A stretch of DNA of 63,084 bases, the filler included, from Nanobdellota archaeon (GTDB lineage: Archaea > Nanobdellota > Nanobdellia > B33-G15): the NCBI GenBank assembly GCA_003660925.1. It is 14 parts of 14 records of this genome, joined end to end, with 100 filler letters (N's around TTAATTAATTAA, not from the genome) between each part and the next. Parts side by side here need not be neighbours in the genome. Positions count along the whole stretch, not along the records: positions 5,081 to 10,058 come from QMVD01000049.1; 13 more parts are not named here. One strand, given 5' to 3'. This document shows positions 5,081 to 55,544 of this stretch, one piece after another (position 1 is the first letter of the stretch; every line of letters starts with the position of its first letter). A model generated the notes under the pieces. The model had not been told where the DNA came from, did not search any database, and saw nothing but the letters and a program-made list of their open reading frames with translations. The position numbers and the translations under genes were made by a program.

Positions 5081-5435
5081 ATGTGCTGCTGTGAGTAAGA
5101 CCATAAATCTCCCCCACTGGGCGAGTCCTGATGATGTCCTACATGCCTACCTCTTCGCCCACAGGCTGGGATGTAAAGGGATAACTATTTACAGAGAAGG
5201 GTCTAAGTCCAAGCAAGTCATCTACATGGGTTGGGGAAAGAGGAGCAGGCAGGAGGAGGTCATGAGGAGCATAGAGAACAGGACATTGGACGTGGCGAAC
5301 AAGCTGGGCATAAGGGTGGAAGAAGGGAGAGTGGAAGAGCACGTTTGTCCCAGCTGCGGGAGCGAAGATTTAATATACAAGAGTGGATGTGTTAAATGTC
5401 CAAGTTGTGGGTGGAGCGAATGCACCATAGCATGA
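5081..5435 (+). CDS. nrdJ: Class II ribonucleotide reductase, C-terminal fragment (version A)
   Basis: AVSKTINLP, GCKGITIYREGSK, C-terminal CPSCG...CPSCGWSEC. Confidence 0.88.
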
Positions 5436-5833
5436 GGAAATATCTGATCTTAGCCTTCGTCCTCACCTTGGTGATCATGATAGCTCAGAGGGTCTTCCCC
5501 ACAGGAGCTGCAGTCTCCAAGTACTACAAGGTGAAGCTAATTGTGGATGATGGGACTGGCTGGCAAGATAGACGTGAGTTATTGGTACACTCCAACTTGA
5601 CCGCTTTAGACGTCTTGAAACAAGAGTATGAAGTCAAGACGAAGTACGTAGAAGGTAAAGGATTGTTTGTGGTCGGAATCAAGACGAACAAGTGGGTGGA
5701 GGAGAAGGATCCCTACTTCTGGCACTTCTGCGTGAACGGAAAGCTCATGGAGGTGGGTGCCGATTCTTACCTGGTTGGAGACGGCGATAATCTCACCTTC
5801 GCTTATTCGGACATAGCCACGTGCCTGAGATGA
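5432..5833 (+). CDS. DUF4430-like secreted or membrane-anchored protein (version A)
   Basis: N-terminal TM helix; TALDVLK, FWHFCVNGK, VGADSY..DGD. Confidence 0.75.
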   Translation: MRKYLILAFVLTLVIMIAQRVFPTGAAVSKYYKVKLIVDDGTGWQDRRELLVHSNLTALDVLKQEYEVKTKYVEGKGLFVVGIKTNKWVEEKDPYFWHFCVNGKLMEVGADSYLVGDGDNLTFAYSDIATCLR

Positions 5834-6114
5834 GGTTGGAGGAGCTCGTGAAGAAAATCCCGAGAGGGAAGGTGACCACTTATAAAGAACTAGCCAAGGC
5901 CTTGGGAACAAGCCCTAGAGCGATAGGCCAGTTGTTGAAGAAGAGCAAGGGGATCCCGTGTCACAGGGTAGTAAGGTCCGACGGGACTTTGGGAGGTTAC
6001 AGGGGGAAGAACTGGAAGGAGAAGAAGAGGTTGTTGGAAAGAGAGGGAATCAAGATAAAAGGTAAGTTGATAGTGGACTTCGAAAAGGTCATGTTCAAGC
6101 TCTCCTCGGAGTGA
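5830..6114 (+). CDS. ogt: Methylated-DNA-protein-cysteine methyltransferase (version A)
   Basis: IPCHRVV active site; TTYKELA HTH. Confidence 0.9.
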   Translation: MRLEELVKKIPRGKVTTYKELAKALGTSPRAIGQLLKKSKGIPCHRVVRSDGTLGGYRGKNWKEKKRLLEREGIKIKGKLIVDFEKVMFKLSSE

Positions 6115-6137
6115 TGGAGGGTGAAAGTTCAAAAAAG

Positions 6138-6255
6138 TAGCGGGGGGAGGATTTGAACCTCCGACCTCCGGGTTTCCCTCGGCATCAAGATGGGCCGGTA
6201 TGAGCCCGGCGAGCACTCCAGGCTGCTTTAGGCTGGGCATCCCATCTACCCCGCT
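6138..6255 (-). tRNA. Initiator tRNA-Met(CAT) with two introns: 25 nt at 37/38 (6174-6198) and 18 nt at 10/11 (6228-6245)
   Basis: Removing both inserts gives the 75-nt cloverleaf AGCGGGG-UA-GAGC-AGCCUGGAGU-GCUC-G-CCGGG-CUCAUAA-CCCGG-AGGUC-GGAGG-UUCAAAU-CCUCC-CCCCGCU-A; A1-U72 and three G-C anticodon-stem pairs mark it as initiator; exons identical to version B. Confidence 0.95.
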
Positions 6256-6824
6256 ACCTGGAGGCCCCTTTTGTACCTCTGTACTTTCACAGAGTTGCTC
6301 TCCGTGTTAATAAAGTTAACGGGTACGTAGAGTCTGTACGAGGGAAGCCTATCTCTCTTTGATTTCTTTCTCTTCTTTAATACCACTCTCATTCCCAAGT
6401 CCTCAAGATATTTCTTGATGAGACACATCACTTTTTTGCTTGTATTAATGAGCATGATCATCCTCTCTGCAGGGTTGACATAGCCCTCAGCATCGATGAA
6501 CCCTGAGATGAAACCGATTTTAAACTCCTTAGAAGAATCAACCAAACTCTTCTTCTGAGCTATGAGGGCCTCATAAAGTCGTTTTGAGCGAACCCTCACC
6601 CTTATTGAATTATACCTCTTGTCCTTACGAAAAGATGGTTTCGTCCCAATTTTAAGCAGGAGTCCTCGTAGGAAATTGACTACATCTGTATCTTTTTCCG
6701 AGTTCAAAAAGAATTCTATGGAATAATGTCTCTGCTTTTTGTCATGGTACGCGTATCCGTCACCAAGAAAGAGACCAAAAAGATATCCTTTTTCTTTCTC
6801 GGTTAGCGAGTCCATCTTTACCAC
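6246..6824 (-). CDS. Free-standing two-motif LAGLIDADG homing endonuclease in the tRNA 5' leader (start GTG 6824 or ATG 6815)
   Basis: YLFGLFLGDG and GFISGFIDAEG motifs; AT-richer than neighbours; absent from version B. Confidence 0.9.
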   Translation of the reverse strand: MVKMDSLTEKEKGYLFGLFLGDGYAYHDKKQRHYSIEFFLNSEKDTDVVNFLRGLLLKIGTKPSFRKDKRYNSIRVRVRSKRLYEALIAQKKSLVDSSKEFKIGFISGFIDAEGYVNPAERMIMLINTSKKVMCLIKKYLEDLGMRVVLKKRKKSKRDRLPSYRLYVPVNFINTESNSVKVQRYKRGLQVAG

Positions 6825-6847
6825 GCTGTATTTGAGTGCTTGGCCTC

Positions 6848-6856
6848 TTTTTTAAA
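6848..6856 (-). promoter_or_regulatory. TATA box shared by endonuclease gene and tRNA-iMet (version A)
   Basis: AAAGTTTAAAAA, matching the element about 40 nt upstream of tRNA-iMet in version B. Confidence 0.6.
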
Positions 6857-6858
6857 CT

Positions 6859-8034
6859 TTAACTTATCACGTTCATTCTCGGGAAGAACAAGGATGGGGA
6901 AGCTATCTTGTCCTCTTGCCTCAGGTCATCCCCCACTTCCACTTCTTTGAGGAGTTCGAAGACGTTCCCCGAGATCATGACGTTCTTCAAGGGGATCCAC
7001 TTTCCACCTTTGATCAAGAAGGCGTTCTCAGTATTTAAGGAGAAATCCCCGTTGCTCTCATTGGCTGTGTGAACCCCAACGAGGTGTTTCACGTATATCC
7101 CTTCCCGTTCCAACTTCCTCCTCGGCTTCACTATCAGGTTCCTCTCCGAGACGTTCGGCCTCTTCCTGAGGTGAAGGAAGTTCCCTGTGCTTTCCTTCCT
7201 CTCCTTCCTCGCGGTCGTGAAGTCGTAAAGGAACCCTTTCACTTTCCCTCTCTTTATTAAGAGGGTTCTCTTACATGGGACACCTTCGCCGTCGAAGGGA
7301 GCGGTGTTCAACCCGAAGGGGAGCAAGCCATCATCATATATTGTGAGGTTCTTTGAGAATTCCCACCCAACTGCCTTCGAGACACCCTTCTGGACGAGGT
7401 CCGCGTGGAAGTGGGAGGAGATGATGGACAAAAGGTCGGCGGATGCTGTGGGACTCAGGGTAACGGGGTAAACCCCTTTCCTAATCCTCCTCTTTCCCAG
7501 TGAGAGCTTACAGAGTTCGTATGCTTTTTTTCCGACCCAGGAGAAATCCTCGAACTTCCGGGTGATATGGCTCTCGTATGAAATGGCGTTCCTGTGTTTC
7601 ACCTCCACCTCCCCGCTCAAGGAGGCCACTTTGTACCTCCCCTTTACCCCGTTCGAGTTCTCGAACTCCACTTCTCCGATCTCCCTGGAAAAAGAAGCAT
7701 AGGTGTTCCACGGGGTTATCAAGCTCTCAGCCAAGTCTAGGAGCTCCTTCTCCGTAAGCCCCAGGATCCTCTTGTCGAAGAGTTTCACCTTCTCATACTT
7801 AGAAGGTTTGGGTAACCCGAAGAACTCTGTCCGCTTCGCATATTTCAGCATTCGCTTCGTCCTCTTCAGGCATCTCTCCTCATCCGTTCCCGAGCAAAAG
7901 ACGCTCTTACCTTCCTTCGTCAGCCTGATACCCACAGTCTTCAACGCCTTTTCCTCCACCTCCCTGAGCTTCCCCTTCCTGAAAATGAAGGTCATCACGT
8001 TTCTCTTGGTGACTACCTTCTCAAGTCCTTCCAC
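6859..8034 (-). CDS. PmbA/TldE-family protein (version A)
   Basis: PFDGEGVP, STGN, GDFS, MISGNVFELL; downstream of TldD. Confidence 0.88.
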   Translation of the reverse strand: MEGLEKVVTKRNVMTFIFRKGKLREVEEKALKTVGIRLTKEGKSVFCSGTDEERCLKRTKRMLKYAKRTEFFGLPKPSKYEKVKLFDKRILGLTEKELLDLAESLITPWNTYASFSREIGEVEFENSNGVKGRYKVASLSGEVEVKHRNAISYESHITRKFEDFSWVGKKAYELCKLSLGKRRIRKGVYPVTLSPTASADLLSIISSHFHADLVQKGVSKAVGWEFSKNLTIYDDGLLPFGLNTAPFDGEGVPCKRTLLIKRGKVKGFLYDFTTARKERKESTGNFLHLRKRPNVSERNLIVKPRRKLEREGIYVKHLVGVHTANESNGDFSLNTENAFLIKGGKWIPLKNVMISGNVFELLKEVEVGDDLRQEDKIASPSLFFPRMNVIS

Positions 8035-9277
8035 CGACCACCGCCTCCCTCAACAACACGAAAGGCATCTTTTGGTCCACGGGAACGGTCTGTCCCAACT
8101 TCCCACAATAACCACTACCCACCCAATACCTCCGCTTCCCTATCAAAACTATGTCCTTGAGGGTTTTGAGTATGTCTCCTGAAAGGGAAACCCCTTTTAT
8201 GGGTTCAGTTATTTCTCCCTTCCTCACCAAGAAACCATACTTGGCGCTGAAAAGGAAGAAGCCGTGAGAAGGCTCTACCACTCCTCCTATGGAGTCCTTC
8301 ATGTAAACCCCATCCTTCATCTCCTCGAGCATCTCCTGAAGGTTGGAGTCCCCTTTCTCCAAGATCGTGTTGGACATCCTAGGGAGGGGCAAATGAGCAG
8401 CGCTCTCCGCCCTGCCGTTCCCAGGGATTCCCCTCAACTTCGCAGCGCTCTCCCTAGAGTGTAAGTAGTCCTTCAGGACGCCTTTTTCTATGAGGGTCCT
8501 CCTCCTCGCCTTGATCCCCTCATCATCCAGCGGAAAATAGCCGAAGCCCTTCTGAGTGGGGTCATCGTATAGGGTCACGATTTCAGAGGCTATTTTCCTT
8601 CCCAACTTCCCCTTCAGGACGCTGGTCCCTTCCAGAATTGCATCTCCCTCGCAAGCATGGCCTACTGCCTCATGGAAGAAAACACCCGCCAACTCCGGAT
8701 CCAGGATGACGGGCATCCTCCCAGCGGGGGCGTGTCTCGCTCTGCTCATCAACTTTAACTCCTCTACTAGCTTATTCACGTCCTTCTCGATGTCCTTCAT
8801 CCTCACGTTCTCGTTCAAGAAACCCTTTACCAAGAAGTTCATGTCCAACCCCTCGCTCCTTATGACCACCTTCACGTTAGTCCTCTTCACGTCGTAACTC
8901 GCTTCACTCCCCTCAGAGTTTTCGTATTCCACGTGCCTCTTGGCCTCGTAAATGCCAACGATCCTGTGCTTGATCACTTCATCATTCAGTAGCTCGTAGA
9001 CCTCGTCCACGAGATCGAGAGGCTGTTCCTCGAACTTCAGGGGTTTCTTAAGTTCAACCTTTTCCCACCTCTTGACCCTAACACCTCTCCCAATGGACAA
9101 CCTCTTGGCCTTCTCCAACATCTTGGGGTGAAATTCGTTAGAAACCATGAATCCAACCCCCTCATCCACGTACCTCACTCCAACCAAAGAGGTGGAATAA
9201 GAAATGGTGTTTACATCTCCCTCATCTATCTCCAACCCCCTGACCTCTTTTTTCTCCTTCCTTATGTCGAAGAACAT
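8021..9277 (-). CDS. tldD: TldD-family metalloprotease (version A)
   Basis: HEAVGHACEGD, PRMSNT, CGKLGQTVPV. Confidence 0.92.
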   Translation of the reverse strand: MFFDIRKEKKEVRGLEIDEGDVNTISYSTSLVGVRYVDEGVGFMVSNEFHPKMLEKAKRLSIGRGVRVKRWEKVELKKPLKFEEQPLDLVDEVYELLNDEVIKHRIVGIYEAKRHVEYENSEGSEASYDVKRTNVKVVIRSEGLDMNFLVKGFLNENVRMKDIEKDVNKLVEELKLMSRARHAPAGRMPVILDPELAGVFFHEAVGHACEGDAILEGTSVLKGKLGRKIASEIVTLYDDPTQKGFGYFPLDDEGIKARRRTLIEKGVLKDYLHSRESAAKLRGIPGNGRAESAAHLPLPRMSNTILEKGDSNLQEMLEEMKDGVYMKDSIGGVVEPSHGFFLFSAKYGFLVRKGEITEPIKGVSLSGDILKTLKDIVLIGKRRYWVGSGYCGKLGQTVPVDQKMPFVLLREAVVGGRT

Positions 9278-10058
9278 CTATCCAATGATGCGCTTTATCT
9301 TTTTCAACGTTTTCTTATCCTTCCACTCCAGAGCGTGTTCCAGGACCTCATAGATGGTCGACACGGGGATTACCTTAATCCCCTTAACCATGATGTCCTT
9401 CTCGTTCATCTTAGGGATTATGACGGCCTTCATGCCCGCCTCTTTAGCTGCCTCCACTTTAGCGTTTATAGAGCCAACAGGTAGGACCTCTCCCCTTATG
9501 CTAAGGGAACCTGTGAGGGCGACGCTCTGTTTTATGGGGATGTTCTCGAGGGCAGATATGACCGCTGCCGCTACGGAGATGCTCGCCGAGTCCCCCTCTA
9601 CCCCCTCATAAGTCTGGATGAATTGGATGTGAATGTCATAGTTAGAGATATCTCTCCCAGAATACTTCTTTATGATGGCGCTCACGTTCTCCACCGCTTC
9701 CTTAGCGATTTTACCCAGTTTCCCTGTGGCTATTATCCTCCCAGAACCCTTCTTCATGCTTGGGGCCAAGGTCGCTTCTATGGGTAAGACCAACCCCGTA
9801 TCCGAGCCGCTTATCACAGCCAGACCGTTCACCCTTCCAACAGCGACCCCAGTGTTCCTTATCACCTGATATTCCTTCTTCTCTTTCATGTATCTCTCCG
9901 CGACCTGTTGTTCTAGGGAGCTCGCTAACTTCTTGGCTTTCCTCACGTGCTTGGGCAGGACGTACTTCGCTCCCTCTTCCCTAGCTATGTCTCCTGCCAC
10001 TCTGACCAGCCCCCCTAAGTCTCTTAATTTTAAGGTGAGATAGCCCCTCCTTCCCGCC
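9278..10058 (-). CDS. lonB: Archaeal Lon protease (LonB), C-terminal fragment
   Basis: [11 protein letters not shown]er-Lys dyad; [17 protein letters not shown]. Confidence 0.93.
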
Positions 10059-51774: not shown

Positions 51775-52129
51775 ATGTGCTGCTGTGAGTAAGACCATAA
51801 ATCTCCCCCACTGGGCGAGTCCTGATGATGTCCTACATGCCTACCTCTTCGCCCACAGGCTGGGATGTAAAGGGATAACTATTTACAGAGAAGGGTCCAA
51901 GTCCAAGCAAGTCATCTACATGGGTTGGGGAAAGAGGGAGAGACAGGAAGAGGTCATGAGGAGTATAGAGAACAGGACATTGGACGTGGCAAGCAAGCTG
52001 GGCATAAGGGTGGAGGAAGGAAGGGTGGAAGAGCACGTTTGTCCCAGCTGCGGGAGCGAAGATTTAATATACGAGAGTGGATGTGTTAAATGTCCAAGTT
52101 GTGGGTGGAGCGAATGCACCATAGCATGA
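51775..52129 (+). CDS. nrdJ: Class II RNR, C-terminal fragment (version B)
   Basis: Near-identical to 5081-5435. Confidence 0.88.
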
Positions 52130-52527
52130 GGAAATACCTGACCTTGGCTTTTGTCCTCACCTTGGTGATCATAATAGCTCAGAGGGTCTTCCCCACAGGA
52201 GCTGCAGTCTCCAAGTACTACAAGGTGAAGCTAATTGTGGATGATGGGACTGGCTGGCAAGATAGACGTGAGTTATTGGTACACTCTAACCTGACCGCTT
52301 TAGACGTCTTGAAACAAGAGTACGAAGTCAAGACGAAGTACGTGGAAGGTAAAGGATTGTTCGTGGTCGGGATCAAGACGAACAAGTGGGTGGAGGAGAA
52401 GGATCCCTACTTCTGGCACTTCTGCGTGAACGGAAAGCTCATGGAGGTGGGTGCCGATTCTTACCTGGTTGGGGACGGCGATAATCTCACCTTCGCTTAT
52501 TCGGACATAGCCACGTGCCTGAGATGA
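52126..52527 (+). CDS. DUF4430-like protein (version B)
   Basis: 2 aa differences from version A. Confidence 0.75.
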   Translation: MRKYLTLAFVLTLVIIIAQRVFPTGAAVSKYYKVKLIVDDGTGWQDRRELLVHSNLTALDVLKQEYEVKTKYVEGKGLFVVGIKTNKWVEEKDPYFWHFCVNGKLMEVGADSYLVGDGDNLTFAYSDIATCLR

Positions 52528-52808
52528 GGTTGGAGGAGCTCGTGAGGAAAATCCCAGAGGGAAGGGTGACCACTTACAAGGAACTGGCCAGGGTCCTGGG
52601 AACCAGTCCCAGGGTGGTTGGCCAGTTGTTGAAGAGGAGCAAGGGGATCCCTTGTCACAGGGTAGTAAGGTCCGATGGGAGCTTGGGTGGTTACAGGGGG
52701 AAGAAATGGAGGGAGAAGAAGAGGTTGTTGGAAAGGGAGGGAATCAAGATAAAAGGTAAGTTGATAGTGGACTTCGAAAAGGTCATGTTCAAGCTCTCCT
52801 CAAGATGA
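52524..52808 (+). CDS. ogt: MGMT (version B)
   Basis: IPCHRVV. Confidence 0.9.
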   Translation: MRLEELVRKIPEGRVTTYKELARVLGTSPRVVGQLLKRSKGIPCHRVVRSDGSLGGYRGKKWREKKRLLEREGIKIKGKLIVDFEKVMFKLSSR

Positions 52809-52929
52809 CCTCCAGCGTGTCCCCTTCCTGAACCCCGAGGTGGCGGACTATGTTCCTCGGCACGACGAGATATCCCTCACAAATCGATGGGCCCTGAGCC
52901 CCACTGAGATGTAAAAATAATAGGAGCAT
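52789..52929 (-). CDS. 46-aa ORF with AbrB/SpoVT-like C-terminal half (version B only)
   Basis: GYLVVPRNIVRHLGVQEGDTLEV; GAGGAG upstream of ATG. Confidence 0.45.
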   Translation of the reverse strand: MLLLFLHLSGAQGPSICEGYLVVPRNIVRHLGVQEGDTLEVILRRA

Positions 52930-53048
52930 CCGCTCCTCTTGAGTTGTAGTTCAGCCCCTTTTGCGGTTCTTTTCGTGTCGTCTTTTGGAGGGAGGTACGT
53001 ATGTTAAAAAAGTAGCGGGGGGAGGATTTGAACCTCCGACCTCCGGGT

Positions 53049-53741
53049 TTCTCTCGGCATCGTCTCTACCACTAACTCCTTCCGCTGTTTTAAAGCTTTT
53101 GATTCAAGATTTCTCTCAGAACTTGGAGTTTTTCCTTCCCGTATCTGAGATTTCCTTTTCCTCTCCCTATCTTCACCCCGTGACTGAATCCTATCTTCTC
53201 GAAGAACTTCTTCAAGTTATCTCTTCTGCTGATGATTATTCCTAACCTGTCATAATCTTCACGTGCGGGGATCCCAATTTCACGATGCAGTTCCAAAAGA
53301 AAGTTTCTAACTTTCTCATCTTTTTGTCGCCCCCTCAACTTAATCGAACGTTTCTTCAGATCTATCGAAATGGTGCCTTCATCGTCCCAAAAAGCCCTTA
53401 AGAATTCCGTGATTTTCTTTTCATCTTCTTCCAAGAATTTTGCCAGTAAATCTAAATTTGATGTGAAATCGTTGAGAAACTTCCAAAGGAATTTACTCGA
53501 AAGCTCAACCTCATAAACGTCATTCTCCCTGCGTCTCTCATAGAAATGCGCATCAACCAAACGTTTTACGTCCGTCTTAAACTGTTCGATAAGGACGTAA
53601 TTTTTGTTGGCAAAACCTACGATGTAAGAACCTGCATGGCATCTGAGCCATCCATCAAACAGAACATGGGAAATTAGCCTTGCCAAGCCCATAATGAGAA
53701 GAATTCTAATTCATTTAAAAAGGGTAGGGGGACGATGCCAG
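53049..53741 (-). mobile_element. BHB-type tRNA intron encoding a homing endonuclease
   Basis: Bulges UA|C and AA|A around central helix CUCA/AGAG; closing stem UGGCAUCGUC/GACGAUGCCG plus CUACC/GGUAG; ORF in the loop. Confidence 0.9.
53090..53692 (-). CDS. Intron-encoded two-motif LAGLIDADG endonuclease
   Basis: RLISHVLFDG and EFLRAFWDDEG motifs; C-terminal KFFEKIGF. Confidence 0.9.
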   Translation of the reverse strand: MGLARLISHVLFDGWLRCHAGSYIVGFANKNYVLIEQFKTDVKRLVDAHFYERRRENDVYEVELSSKFLWKFLNDFTSNLDLLAKFLEEDEKKITEFLRAFWDDEGTISIDLKKRSIKLRGRQKDEKVRNFLLELHREIGIPAREDYDRLGIIISRRDNLKKFFEKIGFSHGVKIGRGKGNLRYGKEKLQVLREILNQKL

Positions 53742-53820
53742 TATGAGCCCGGCGAGCACTCCAGGCTGCTCTACCCCGCTACTTAAACGCCCCTACCCAT
53801 ATTCGAGTAATTTGCTATCG

Positions 53821-53828
53821 TTTTTAAA
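53821..53828 (-). promoter_or_regulatory. TATA box of tRNA-iMet (version B)
   Basis: TTTAAAAA about 40 nt upstream of the mature 5' end. Confidence 0.6.
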
Positions 53829-53830
53829 CT

Positions 53831-55006
53831 TTAACTTATCACGTTCATTCTCGGGAAGAACAAGGATGGGGAAGCTATCTTATCCTCCTGTCTCAGGTCA
53901 TCCCCCACTTCCACTTCCTTGAGGAGTTCGAATACGTTCCCCGAGATCATGACGTTCTTCAAGGGGATCCACTTTCCTCCTTTGATCAAGAAGGCGTTCT
54001 CAGTATTTAAGGAGAAATCCCCGTTGCTCTCATTGGCTGTGTGAACCCCAACGAGGTGTTTCACGTATACCCCTTCCCGTTCCAACTTCCTCCTCGGCTT
54101 CACTATCAGGTTCCTCTCCGAGATGTTCGGCCTCTTCCTGAGGTGAAGGAAGTTCCCGGTGCTTTCCTTCCCCTCCTTCCTCGCGGTCGTGAAGTCGTAG
54201 AGGAACCCTTTCACTTTCCCTCTCTCTATTAAGAGGGTTCTCTTACATGGGACACCTTCGCCGTCGAAGGGAGCGGTGTTCAACCCGAAGGGGAGCAGGC
54301 CATCATCGTATATGGTGAGGTCCTTGGAGAATTCCCACTCAACCGCCTTTGAGATGCCCTTCTGGACGAGGTCCGCGTGGAAGTGAGAAGAGATGATGGA
54401 CAAAAGGTCAGCGGATGCTGTGGGGCTCAGGGTGACGGGGTAAACCCCTTTCCTGATCCTCTTCTTTCCTAGTGAGAGCTTACAGAGTTCGTATGCTTTT
54501 TCTCCGACCCAGGAGAAATCCTCGAACTTCCGGGTGATATGGCTCTCGTATGAAATGGCGTTCCTGTGCTTCACCTCCACCTCCCCGCTCAAGGAGGCCA
54601 CTTCGTACTTCCCTCTCACCCCGTTCGAGTTCTCGAACTCCACTTCTCTGATCTCCCTGGAGAAGGAGGCGTAGGTGTTCCACGGGGTTATCAAGCTCTC
54701 AGCCAAGTCTAGGAGCTCCTTCTCCGTAAGCCCTAGGATCCTCTTGTCGAAGAGCTTTATCTTCTCATACTTAGAAGGTTTGGGTAGCCCGAAGAACTCT
54801 GTCCGCTTCGCGTATTTTAGCATTCGCTTCGTCCTCTTCAGGCATCTTTCCTCATCCGTCCCCGAGCAGAAGACACTCTTACCTTCCTTCGTCAGCCTGA
54901 TACCCACAGTCTTCAACGCCTTCTCCTCCACCTCCCTGAGCTTCCCCTTCCTGAAAATGAAGGTCATCACGTTTCTCTTGGTGACTACCTTCTCAAGTCC
55001 TTCCAC
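53831..55006 (-). CDS. PmbA/TldE-family protein (version B)
   Basis: About 14 aa differences from version A. Confidence 0.88.
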   Translation of the reverse strand: MEGLEKVVTKRNVMTFIFRKGKLREVEEKALKTVGIRLTKEGKSVFCSGTDEERCLKRTKRMLKYAKRTEFFGLPKPSKYEKIKLFDKRILGLTEKELLDLAESLITPWNTYASFSREIREVEFENSNGVRGKYEVASLSGEVEVKHRNAISYESHITRKFEDFSWVGEKAYELCKLSLGKKRIRKGVYPVTLSPTASADLLSIISSHFHADLVQKGISKAVEWEFSKDLTIYDDGLLPFGLNTAPFDGEGVPCKRTLLIERGKVKGFLYDFTTARKEGKESTGNFLHLRKRPNISERNLIVKPRRKLEREGVYVKHLVGVHTANESNGDFSLNTENAFLIKGGKWIPLKNVMISGNVFELLKEVEVGDDLRQEDKIASPSLFFPRMNVIS

Positions 55007-55544
55007 CGACCACCGCCTCCCTCAACAACACGAAGGGCATCTTTTGGTCCACGGGAACGGTCTGTCCCAACTTCCCACAATAACCACTACCCACCCAATA
55101 CCTTCGCTTCCCTATCAAAACTATGTCCTTGAGGGTTTTGAGTATGTCTCCTGAAAGGGAAACCCCTTTTATGGGTTCAGTTATTTCTCCCTTCCTCACC
55201 AAAAAACCATACTTGGCGCTGAAGAGGAAGAAGCCGTGAGAAGGCTCTACCACTCCTCCGATGGAGCCTTTCATGTAAACCCCATCCTTCATCTCCTCGA
55301 GCATCTCCTTAAAGTTGGAGTCCCCTTTCTCCAAGATCGTGTTGGACATCCTAGGGAGGGGCAAATGAGCAGCGCTCTCCGCCCTGCCGTTCCCAGGGAT
55401 TCCCCTCAACTTCGCAGCGCTTTCCCTAGAGTGTAAGTAGTCCTTCAGGACGCCTTTTTCTATGAGGGTCCTCCTCCTCGCCTTGATCCCCTCATCATCT
55501 AAGGGAAAATAGCCGAAGCCCTTCTGAGTGGGGTCATCGTATAG
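54993..55544 (-). CDS. tldD: TldD, C-terminal part (version B)
   Basis: Near-identical to version A; cut by contig end. Confidence 0.9.
   Translation of the reverse strand, partial: LYDDPTQKGFGYFPLDDEGIKARRRTLIEKGVLKDYLHSRESAAKLRGIPGNGRAESAAHLPLPRMSNTILEKGDSNFKEMLEEMKDGVYMKGSIGGVVEPSHGFFLFSAKYGFLVRKGEITEPIKGVSLSGDILKTLKDIVLIGKRRYWVGSGYCGKLGQTVPVDQKMPFVLLREAVVGGRT

Follow-up and report, generated by a model that had tools for sequence, protein, structure and literature searches.

Homing endonucleases of the I-DmoI and I-Tsp061I type, which are known from archaeal rRNA introns, combine two motifs within about 190 amino acids and are tied to bulge-helix-bulge introns, as described in PMC4496867. 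We analysed a stretch of DNA of 63,084 nucleotides (nt), here called the window, from a Nanobdellota archaeon (assembly GCA_003660925.1), in which a LAGLIDADG endonuclease gene with the same motif number, size, fold and link to such introns lies directly upstream of the initiator tRNA-Met gene. In I-DmoI-type systems the open reading frame (ORF) is located inside the intron, whereas here it ends in exon 1, outside an intron of 18 nt, and the target is a tRNA. Our data suggest, with a probability of roughly two in three, that the locus is a homing cassette: it would cut intronless alleles near nt 9-14 of the tRNA, take over the host promoter and repair the tRNA by supplying an immune 5' exon, preceded by a leader and a second promoter. 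Anatomy and statistics were read from the sequence, and from these we infer cutting, transcription starts, splicing and homing.

An archaeal nuclease that carries a neighbouring small intron along is known from Pyrobaculum 16S rRNA, where the Pog.S1213 nuclease cuts the empty site of the small hairpin intron Pog.S1205 and co-converts it (PMC4496867). It differs from our case in that the nuclease resides in an intron of its own, and the accessible part of this source mentions neither a duplicated gene start nor promoter capture for the system. Intronless and collaborative homing are described for free-standing phage endonucleases (T4 seg/mob, SegB in the tRNA region, F-CphI); a free-standing nuclease gene can be pre-adapted to the site where an intron inserts, and retention of nuclease genes is favoured by host promoters that they contain (PMC2988022). 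These phage enzymes belong to the GIY-YIG, HNH or EndoVII types and cut far from their gene, whereas here a cellular LAGLIDADG gene lies in its own target, the 5' end of which is rebuilt. In fungal mitochondria, endonuclease genes insert into rps3 or atp genes and carry a copy of the displaced gene end. Those elements concern the 3' end of protein genes, in contrast to a tRNA 5' end with promoter and an intron as presumed immunity. Within this analogy, the rps3-LAGLIDADG fusion in fungal mitochondria is the sole part confirmed in the accessible text of PMC12308204. Integrase-driven elements at tRNA genes likewise duplicate part of the tRNA at the junction, but here it is the 5' end, and the LAGLIDADG ORF is the only one between the duplicated tRNA start (the relic, see below) and the tRNA, with no integrase gene in the element. 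Duplication of the 3' end is the usual case for integrase-driven elements.

Archaeal tRNAs can also contain bulge-helix-bulge introns at non-standard sites, reaching down to position 3/4 in Thermoproteales, and in split tRNAs extensions pair to build the splice motif (PMC4090602, PMC4033280, PMC3218864). In contrast to split and permuted tRNAs, here an exon and the 5' leader pair in cis within one intact tRNA, and a nuclease family is tied to the introns; neither was met in the accessible parts of these three sources. No description of the whole arrangement was found in the literature covered, which was largely without subscription journals. By comparison with the described systems, the cassette would work like collaborative or co-conversion homing with an I-DmoI-like enzyme and would not belong to the intron-encoded class.

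The bin has a size of 0.67 Mb and is 88.5% complete, and the locus is found on its contig C49 (version A, to distinguish it from a second allele, version B). Read along the minus strand, a PmbA/TldD gene ends at 6859 and is followed by the TATA box (6856-6849), the ORF (6824-6246), the tRNA (6255-6138) and a T run, so that the ORF indeed lies between the TATA box of the tRNA and the tRNA, as had been noticed in a sequence-only reading of this DNA. The features are as follows:

6849..6864, minus: P1, the original tRNA promoter, with a purine-rich run resembling the transcription factor B recognition element and the TATA box 6856-6849; now 5' of the nuclease gene and common to version B
6816..6827, minus: remains of nt 1-12 of an intronless initiator tRNA (the relic), with 10 of 12 bases unchanged (score 9/11); putative left junction of the insertion
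6246..6824, minus: ORF of a two-motif monomeric LAGLIDADG endonuclease, start GTG at 6824 or ATG at 6815, stop TAG (Pfam, predicted structure)
6756..6785, minus: LAGLIDADG motif 1, residues 14-23, catalytic D22 (alignment)
6483..6512, minus: LAGLIDADG motif 2, residues 105-114, catalytic E113 (alignment)
6307..6322, minus: P2, a candidate tRNA promoter inside the ORF (codons 168-173), with a TATA-like octamer at 6314-6307 and a transcript predicted to begin at about 6284 (promoter matrix)
6256..6263, minus: part of the leader that can pair with the D-loop of the tRNA (6222-6216), giving the outer helix in the splice structure at 10/11 (folding)
6246..6255, minus: tRNA exon 1, nt 1-10, overlapped by the last ORF codons (sequence, splice model)
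6228..6245, minus: 18-nt intron at 10/11, putative interrupter of the nuclease target (fold); not in version B
6199..6227, minus: tRNA exon 2, nt 11-37, anticodon CAT (sequence, splice model)
6174..6198, minus: 25-nt intron at 37/38, its ends related to those of the 693-nt nuclease-coding intron of version B (comparison, splice model)
6131..6173, minus: tRNA exon 3 (6173-6138), then the T run 6136-6131 (sequence, Rfam)
53013..53830, minus: version B allele on another contig, with shared promoter, a leader 19 nt longer, no 10/11 intron and a 693-nt 37/38 intron with a different LAGLIDADG ORF (53692-53090) (comparison)

A1-U72 and the anticodon CAT identify the tRNA as initiator tRNA-Met. Excision of 6245-6228 (18 nt, 10/11) and 6198-6174 (25 nt, 37/38) leaves a 75-nt cloverleaf identical to the mature tRNA of version B. 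Neither ARAGORN nor Rfam at its gathering score detected this tRNA at the locus; it scored 22 bits in a separate Rfam scan, and ARAGORN with relaxed intron settings gave an output that was largely noise. Nucleotides 1-10 of the tRNA, AGCGGGGTAG with A1 at 6255, lie inside the ORF end GTA GCG GGG TAG, and the TAG stop corresponds to U8-A9-G10. This overlap, including a stop that ends at the 10/11 splice site, had been reported before and is present, and helix pairing now backs the 10/11 position.

The ORF encodes 192 amino acids from the GTG and matches Pfam LAGLIDADG_3 (E 5.5e-16). Its structure model reaches a mean predicted local distance difference test score (pLDDT) of 87.5, and the best PDB match is I-DmoI (template modelling score ~0.70, E 3.7e-11, 22% identity). 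Both catalytic acids are invariant among the aligned members (D22 in 57/57, E or D at position 113 in 57/57), and the ratio of nonsynonymous to synonymous changes (dN/dS) against the relative G001 of the same genus is 0.20. The protein looks like an active monomeric homing endonuclease with a pseudo-dimeric alpha-beta fold, its activity being a prediction from model and alignment.

A metagenome scan with an eight-sequence alignment confirmed 107 relatives, of which the best 80 were analysed; a cut-off of at least 120 bits kept 75 of these best 80 as the family and left out 5 distant homologues below 120 bits. The 75 loci include the twin of our locus and its near kin, and 5 are cut by a contig end. 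In all 70 loci with downstream sequence, the gene adjoins the initiator tRNA-Met, 67 times upstream and three times at the tRNA 3' end. The sequence-only reading had made its case depend on recurrence of this architecture elsewhere, and with 67 family loci directly upstream of initiator tRNA-Met it does recur. An intron in the tRNA's 5' end (at 4/5, 7/8, 9/10, 10/11, 13/14, 14/15 or 15/16; some splice positions were assigned by hand) accompanies 63 of the 67 upstream genes, so that the nuclease gene stands outside, yet is linked to, a nuclease-less intron. By comparison, no gene lies upstream in 29 intronless control loci (29 of 30 loci fetched); these stem from the 67 of 151 class genomes whose initiator tRNA has an intronless 5' end, which means that element-free alleles exist. 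The related genomes (n=101) hold four more loci of the same layout, one of them broken, and GTDB, scanned by pattern for copies of this tRNA that have an intron in the D arm, yielded 63 loci, of which 57 are archaeal (the 6 bacterial ones were chance matches and left out), with the nuclease gene upstream in 8. After 29 of the 161 records had been dropped as near-duplicates, among them G001 and the twin of our locus, the set used below had 60 gene-bearing loci, or 57 for stop counts and tree after leaving out 3 broken ORFs. Family-level E-values occur in only 4/401 genomes of the phylum, a patchy occurrence. Records of related loci are titled Aenigmatarchaeota, Nanoarchaeota/Nanoarchaeia, Parvarchaeota or Woesearchaeota, which makes our organism a DPANN archaeon, and sequencing runs that share at least half of the sequence words of this DNA bear the labels sediment, seawater, marine or hydrothermal-vent metagenome. 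A viral carrier of the cassette was considered and dropped: viral contigs gave no family member and only three distant matches at 26-28% identity.

A relic of tRNA nt 1-12 lies at the gene start. The first T of the TATA box lies 29 nt before the relic A1, while most tRNA genes of the genome have it at -26 to -33 and the plain leaders of the relatives G003 and G002 have it at -30 and -32. A relic of at least 10/11 is found in 33/60 loci against 2/119 control windows, and one of at least 9/11 in 39/60 against 9/119. The match goes no further than nt 12, and its junction is that of an intronless gene even in loci with a resident 4/5, 7/8 or 10/11 intron. A1 is kept in 16 relics and lost in 18, where the remains yield the start codon AT+G. 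Relic and resident exon differ at 1-3 positions in all 5 gene-bearing loci without a 5' intron, and in the 4/67 carriers without such an intron the resident 5' end differs from the carrier's own relic. The relic of our locus is altered at nt 5 and 10. The simplest reading of these sequences is that the relic is the trace of an insertion after nt 12, with the recipient promoter and first bases left upstream. The previous reading had seen remnants of the version B leader around the gene; these do match, in the upstream ACTCRAATA and at 10 of the 14 bases that end the leader, but insertion after tRNA nt 12 fits better than insertion into the B leader. The direct repeat at 6263 and 6842 is also present (9/10 match, shuffle p = 0.026), but its reading as a target-site duplication was dropped: it overlaps the A-run of the TATA box, the upstream copy is missing in B and 9/57 relatives reach 9/10 in such windows.

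A candidate for a second promoter of the tRNA (P2) lies in the 3' end of the ORF. With a promoter matrix trained on 44 of 55 gene-less tRNA promoters, the site at codon Phe171 is the best of the whole ORF in 32/57 genes and among the top ten in 44/57; here it ranks first among 545 ORF positions, at 6314. The median of this alignment column is 9.0 against -2.0 for the next column. Codon choice is biased at Val169 (GTT in 20/21, background 0.42), Lys170 (AAG in 15/26, 0.23) and Phe171 (TTT in 45/50, 0.78), with a resampling p of 0.0015 among 56 proteins that are less than 70% identical, though still kin. A second relic follows P2 after 29-46 nt in 22/54 loci against 3/588 control windows, and in the intronless gene-bearing loci the distance from P2 to A1 is 32-42 nt in four of five and 64 nt in the fifth. 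The P2 octamer also occurs 29 nt before a tRNA-Leu gene on contig C3 of this genome. P2 is probably a separate tRNA promoter, and the tRNA would have its own transcript if P2 is used.

The leader that would start from P2 takes part in the splice structure. Folded with the leader, the locus forms a 10/11 bulge-helix-bulge with a central helix between nt 5-8 and the intron, two 3-nt bulges and a hairpin; the unpaired G4 makes the outer side of the motif relaxed. The motif also forms in an unconstrained fold and vanishes without the leader. In the 30 alleles with a 10/11 intron, the central helix is fully paired in 23, against 2/30 and 0/30 in slid controls, and has at least 3 of 4 pairs in all 30. 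The duplex of leader and D-loop amounts to -18.4 kcal/mol here (z -3.5), and L042 has a compensatory change at 17a. Leader pairing at p<0.05 is found in 12/13 gene-less 10/11 alleles, compared to 1/25 intronless and 0/20 14/15 alleles; it belongs to the intron and not to the nuclease. In 4/5 introns, the central helix uses leader nt -2/-1 and is fully paired in 16/18 cases with U-A/C-G swaps, and slid controls gave none. Because the leader belongs to the splice structure, splicing must precede 5' trimming. Many DPANN initiator tRNA genes (L039-L101) have several introns, in the D arm, near 29/30, at 37/38 and in the T arm, some of them long.

The same bin holds alleles with and without the nuclease gene. 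Contig C60 (window 51775-55544), or version B, is 95-96% identical to 5081-10058 and has about 200 extra bases 3' of the tRNA; the two versions probably represent two strains. The TATA box of version B lies 48 nt from A1, compared to about 30 nt in relatives, and of the last 14 leader bases 10 match the cassette end, with pairing lost (z -0.4). Version B as the ancestral empty allele is disfavoured on account of this spacing and of a leader that ends like a non-pairing cassette leader; judged from the sequence, it is more probably what is left of an earlier carrier than the ancestral site, although the order of events is itself a reconstruction. Decay is also visible elsewhere: an 85-bp deletion in the gene (window 6663-6747) occurs in contigs of two of four runs (X3, X6) and in L104, the gene copy in G028 is broken, and the leader of the gene-less L095 resembles the gene end in L049. 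The contigs of the four runs, which can show presence and not absence, contain no joint that skips the whole gene. In L103, a cassette of the G001 type is fused to a version-B-like 3' flank, which suggests recombination among alleles. The 37/38 intron of version B (53741-53049, minus, 693 nt) does hold its nuclease inside, unlike the cassette: the ORF 53692-53090 encodes a different LAGLIDADG protein (Pfam E 2.7e-10), and a TATA-like run lies about 28 nt before its ATG. Since the ends of this intron resemble those of the 25-nt intron of version A, one tRNA hosts two separate nuclease systems.

The cassette would comprise the nuclease gene, the second promoter, the leader and a new 5' exon of the DPANN initiator tRNA-Met, with a mini-intron or sometimes substitutions. 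Judging by where the relic ends and where the introns lie, the nuclease would cut intronless alleles around nt 9-14, and repair would copy the cassette in, leaving the recipient promoter and nt 1-12 upstream. The captured promoter would drive the nuclease from a nearly leaderless message (remains of the relic give AT+G in 18 loci), while the cassette's own promoter would supply a short pre-tRNA. Its leader would open the acceptor stem so that the intron is spliced before ribonuclease P (RNase P) trims, and the intron would shield the new allele from further cutting. The borrowed stop would be a by-product of an ORF running into the new exon. Later, the nuclease may decay, as in the deletion and frameshift alleles, with intron and leader remaining, and the site may be re-invaded, as second relics indicate. 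We lean slightly, and less firmly than for the locus itself, towards the broader view that a DPANN homing family invades by promoter swap after nt 12, with the stolen promoter expressing the nuclease and its last codons encoding the new one for the tRNA, that it can go together with six or more different 5'-end introns, some of them leader-dependent, and that it creates and spreads introns through cycles of invasion, decay and re-invasion.

Several observations weigh against these views. The gene is absent from 17/24 GTDB 10/11 alleles and from nearly all 13/14 and 14/15 alleles; introns therefore persist or arise without it. On the nuclease tree, the intron class is clustered, with 18 changes compared to 34 after shuffling and kin sharing labels, but switches are frequent (the minimum would be 7) and the linkage between gene and intron is therefore loose. 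The relic falls below 9/11 in 21/60 loci, mostly of the 4/5 clade, and reaches only 9/11 at our locus. P2 is weak in many 4/5 loci, the Lys172 codon is unbiased and the conserved Phe-Lys alone yields TTTAAA. In a fixed window, leader pairing at p<0.05 is found in only 7/17 gene-bearing 10/11 and 1/5 15/16 alleles. The A7 variant of some intronless alleles regarded as immune is common in controls. Between this genome and G001, the gene has diverged about as much as its flank (86% vs 88%). Finally, three loci (L127, L143, L151) carry the gene at the tRNA 3' end in reverse, which the model explains only via the palindromic acceptor stem. These three genes end where the reverse complement of the acceptor arm mimics a tRNA 5' end. 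On its far side the tRNA has a separate promoter, and the gene start of L151 seems to carry a relic.

The sequence-only reading had explained the overlap by a single transcript that serves as pre-tRNA and mRNA, with a stop at the 5' splice site, so that nuclease expression depends on whether splicing or RNase P cleavage comes first. Overlap is indeed the rule: in 44/57 unbroken ORFs no stop occurs before A1, which makes every transcript that starts at the upstream promoter an mRNA and a long pre-tRNA in one. RNase P would leave such a transcript stopless, while splicing first would briefly leave an mRNA that ends in its own stop. Of the machinery, Pop5 and Rpp30 genes lie side by side on contig C5; RNase P RNA was not found in this 88.5% complete genome, where it may be divergent or unassembled, and a search of the genome for protein-only RNase P gave only a partial PIN_5 match in a 169-codon frame on C25. 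The proposed search for DPANN LAGLIDADG ORFs ending at nt 8-10 showed a minority state. Stops fall at -1..+2 in 19 of the 57 ORFs (a leader T followed by A1 and G2), at nt 8-10 in 5, further inside the tRNA gene in 20 and before it in 13; a 10/11 intron accompanies just 2 of the 5 at nt 8-10, and in G001 (80% identical), whose spacer is one base shorter, the stop falls at -1..+2. A stop at nt 8-10 was accordingly discarded as a conserved feature, and the proposed coupling of nuclease expression to tRNA processing finds no support. As the earlier reading had itself cautioned, UAG is common there: TAG occupies nt 8-10 in 16/24 intronless controls, so that the coincidence with the splice site needs no selection. 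T at -1 is about equally common without (52/72) and with the gene (47/60), and in-frame stops before the tRNA are not significantly rarer than in other frames (13/57 vs 42/114, p = 0.08), although the frame that gives the -1..+2 stop is mildly favoured (21/44, p = 0.03). From these counts, the match of stop and splice site is incidental. At sequence level, a probable separate tRNA promoter was found where that reading had said one would tell against it; the pre-tRNA may double as mRNA to the extent of the overlap, but we consider the coupled single transcript improbable.

A one-time ancient insertion, domesticated or vertically inherited, with relic and introns as fossils and no present homing, is similarly improbable. 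Purifying selection and the equal divergence of gene and flank from G001 are what vertical descent would give, but the patchy occurrence, the presence of both allele types in one bin, decaying copies, stacked relics and near-perfect relics beside proteins less than 70% identical do not fit. Slightly less probable still is a role of the protein in helping difficult 5'-end introns to splice, as a maturase or RNA chaperone retained beside its substrate. LAGLIDADG maturases are known in fungal mitochondria, and such an intron is present in 63/67 loci; this would, however, leave the DNA relic and the second promoter unexplained, both catalytic acids are invariant, and 5/60 gene-bearing loci lack a 5' intron. 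Moreover, none of five incomplete genomes with a gene-less 10/11 allele has a family-level homologue elsewhere with this alignment, the best match reaching E 1.3e-9, mostly in long intein-sized frames. The least probable explanation regards the relic as the true first exon and the gene as lying within one large intron, as for I-DmoI. Sixteen relics keep A1, several with perfect nt 1-12 and at promoter spacing, and the intron could pair through its 3' end with relic nt 5-8, but A1 is lost in 18 relics and about a third are decayed, the changes at nt 5 and 10 would here break acceptor and D-stem pairs, and a complete exon 1 with its own splice structure follows downstream.

Besides the family itself, four distant homologues (L176, L177, L179, L181) of about 265-285 amino acids with an N-terminal extension lie beside other tRNA-like genes, some apparently with introns, and are possibly sister families with other tRNA targets. 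On contig C18 of this genome (L028), ARAGORN predicts an intron of 652 nt in a tRNA-Phe-like call, and another LAGLIDADG-like frame, of 225 codons, overlaps with it. In L049, L056, L134, L147 and L151, the neighbouring gene has an N-terminal motif that we take to be that of RNase HII, so that the tRNA locus may be syntenic across lineages.

Non-canonical tRNA introns have been proposed to protect against integrating elements (PMC3218864, PMC4033280). For the origin and spread of odd archaeal tRNA introns, the family offers a mechanism that can be tested at the DNA level, on a named enzyme and on a predicted target some 20 bp long. The family further predicts a leader-dependent splicing route with splicing ahead of RNase P, provides a protein-coding stretch that doubles as a candidate tRNA promoter and accounts for the failure of standard tools to find the initiator tRNA in genomes of this kind. 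Enzyme engineers, too, may take an interest in a small nuclease with a conserved tRNA sequence as its target. If the homing cassette is true, a selfish nuclease could explain the spread of odd introns in the essential initiator tRNA gene.
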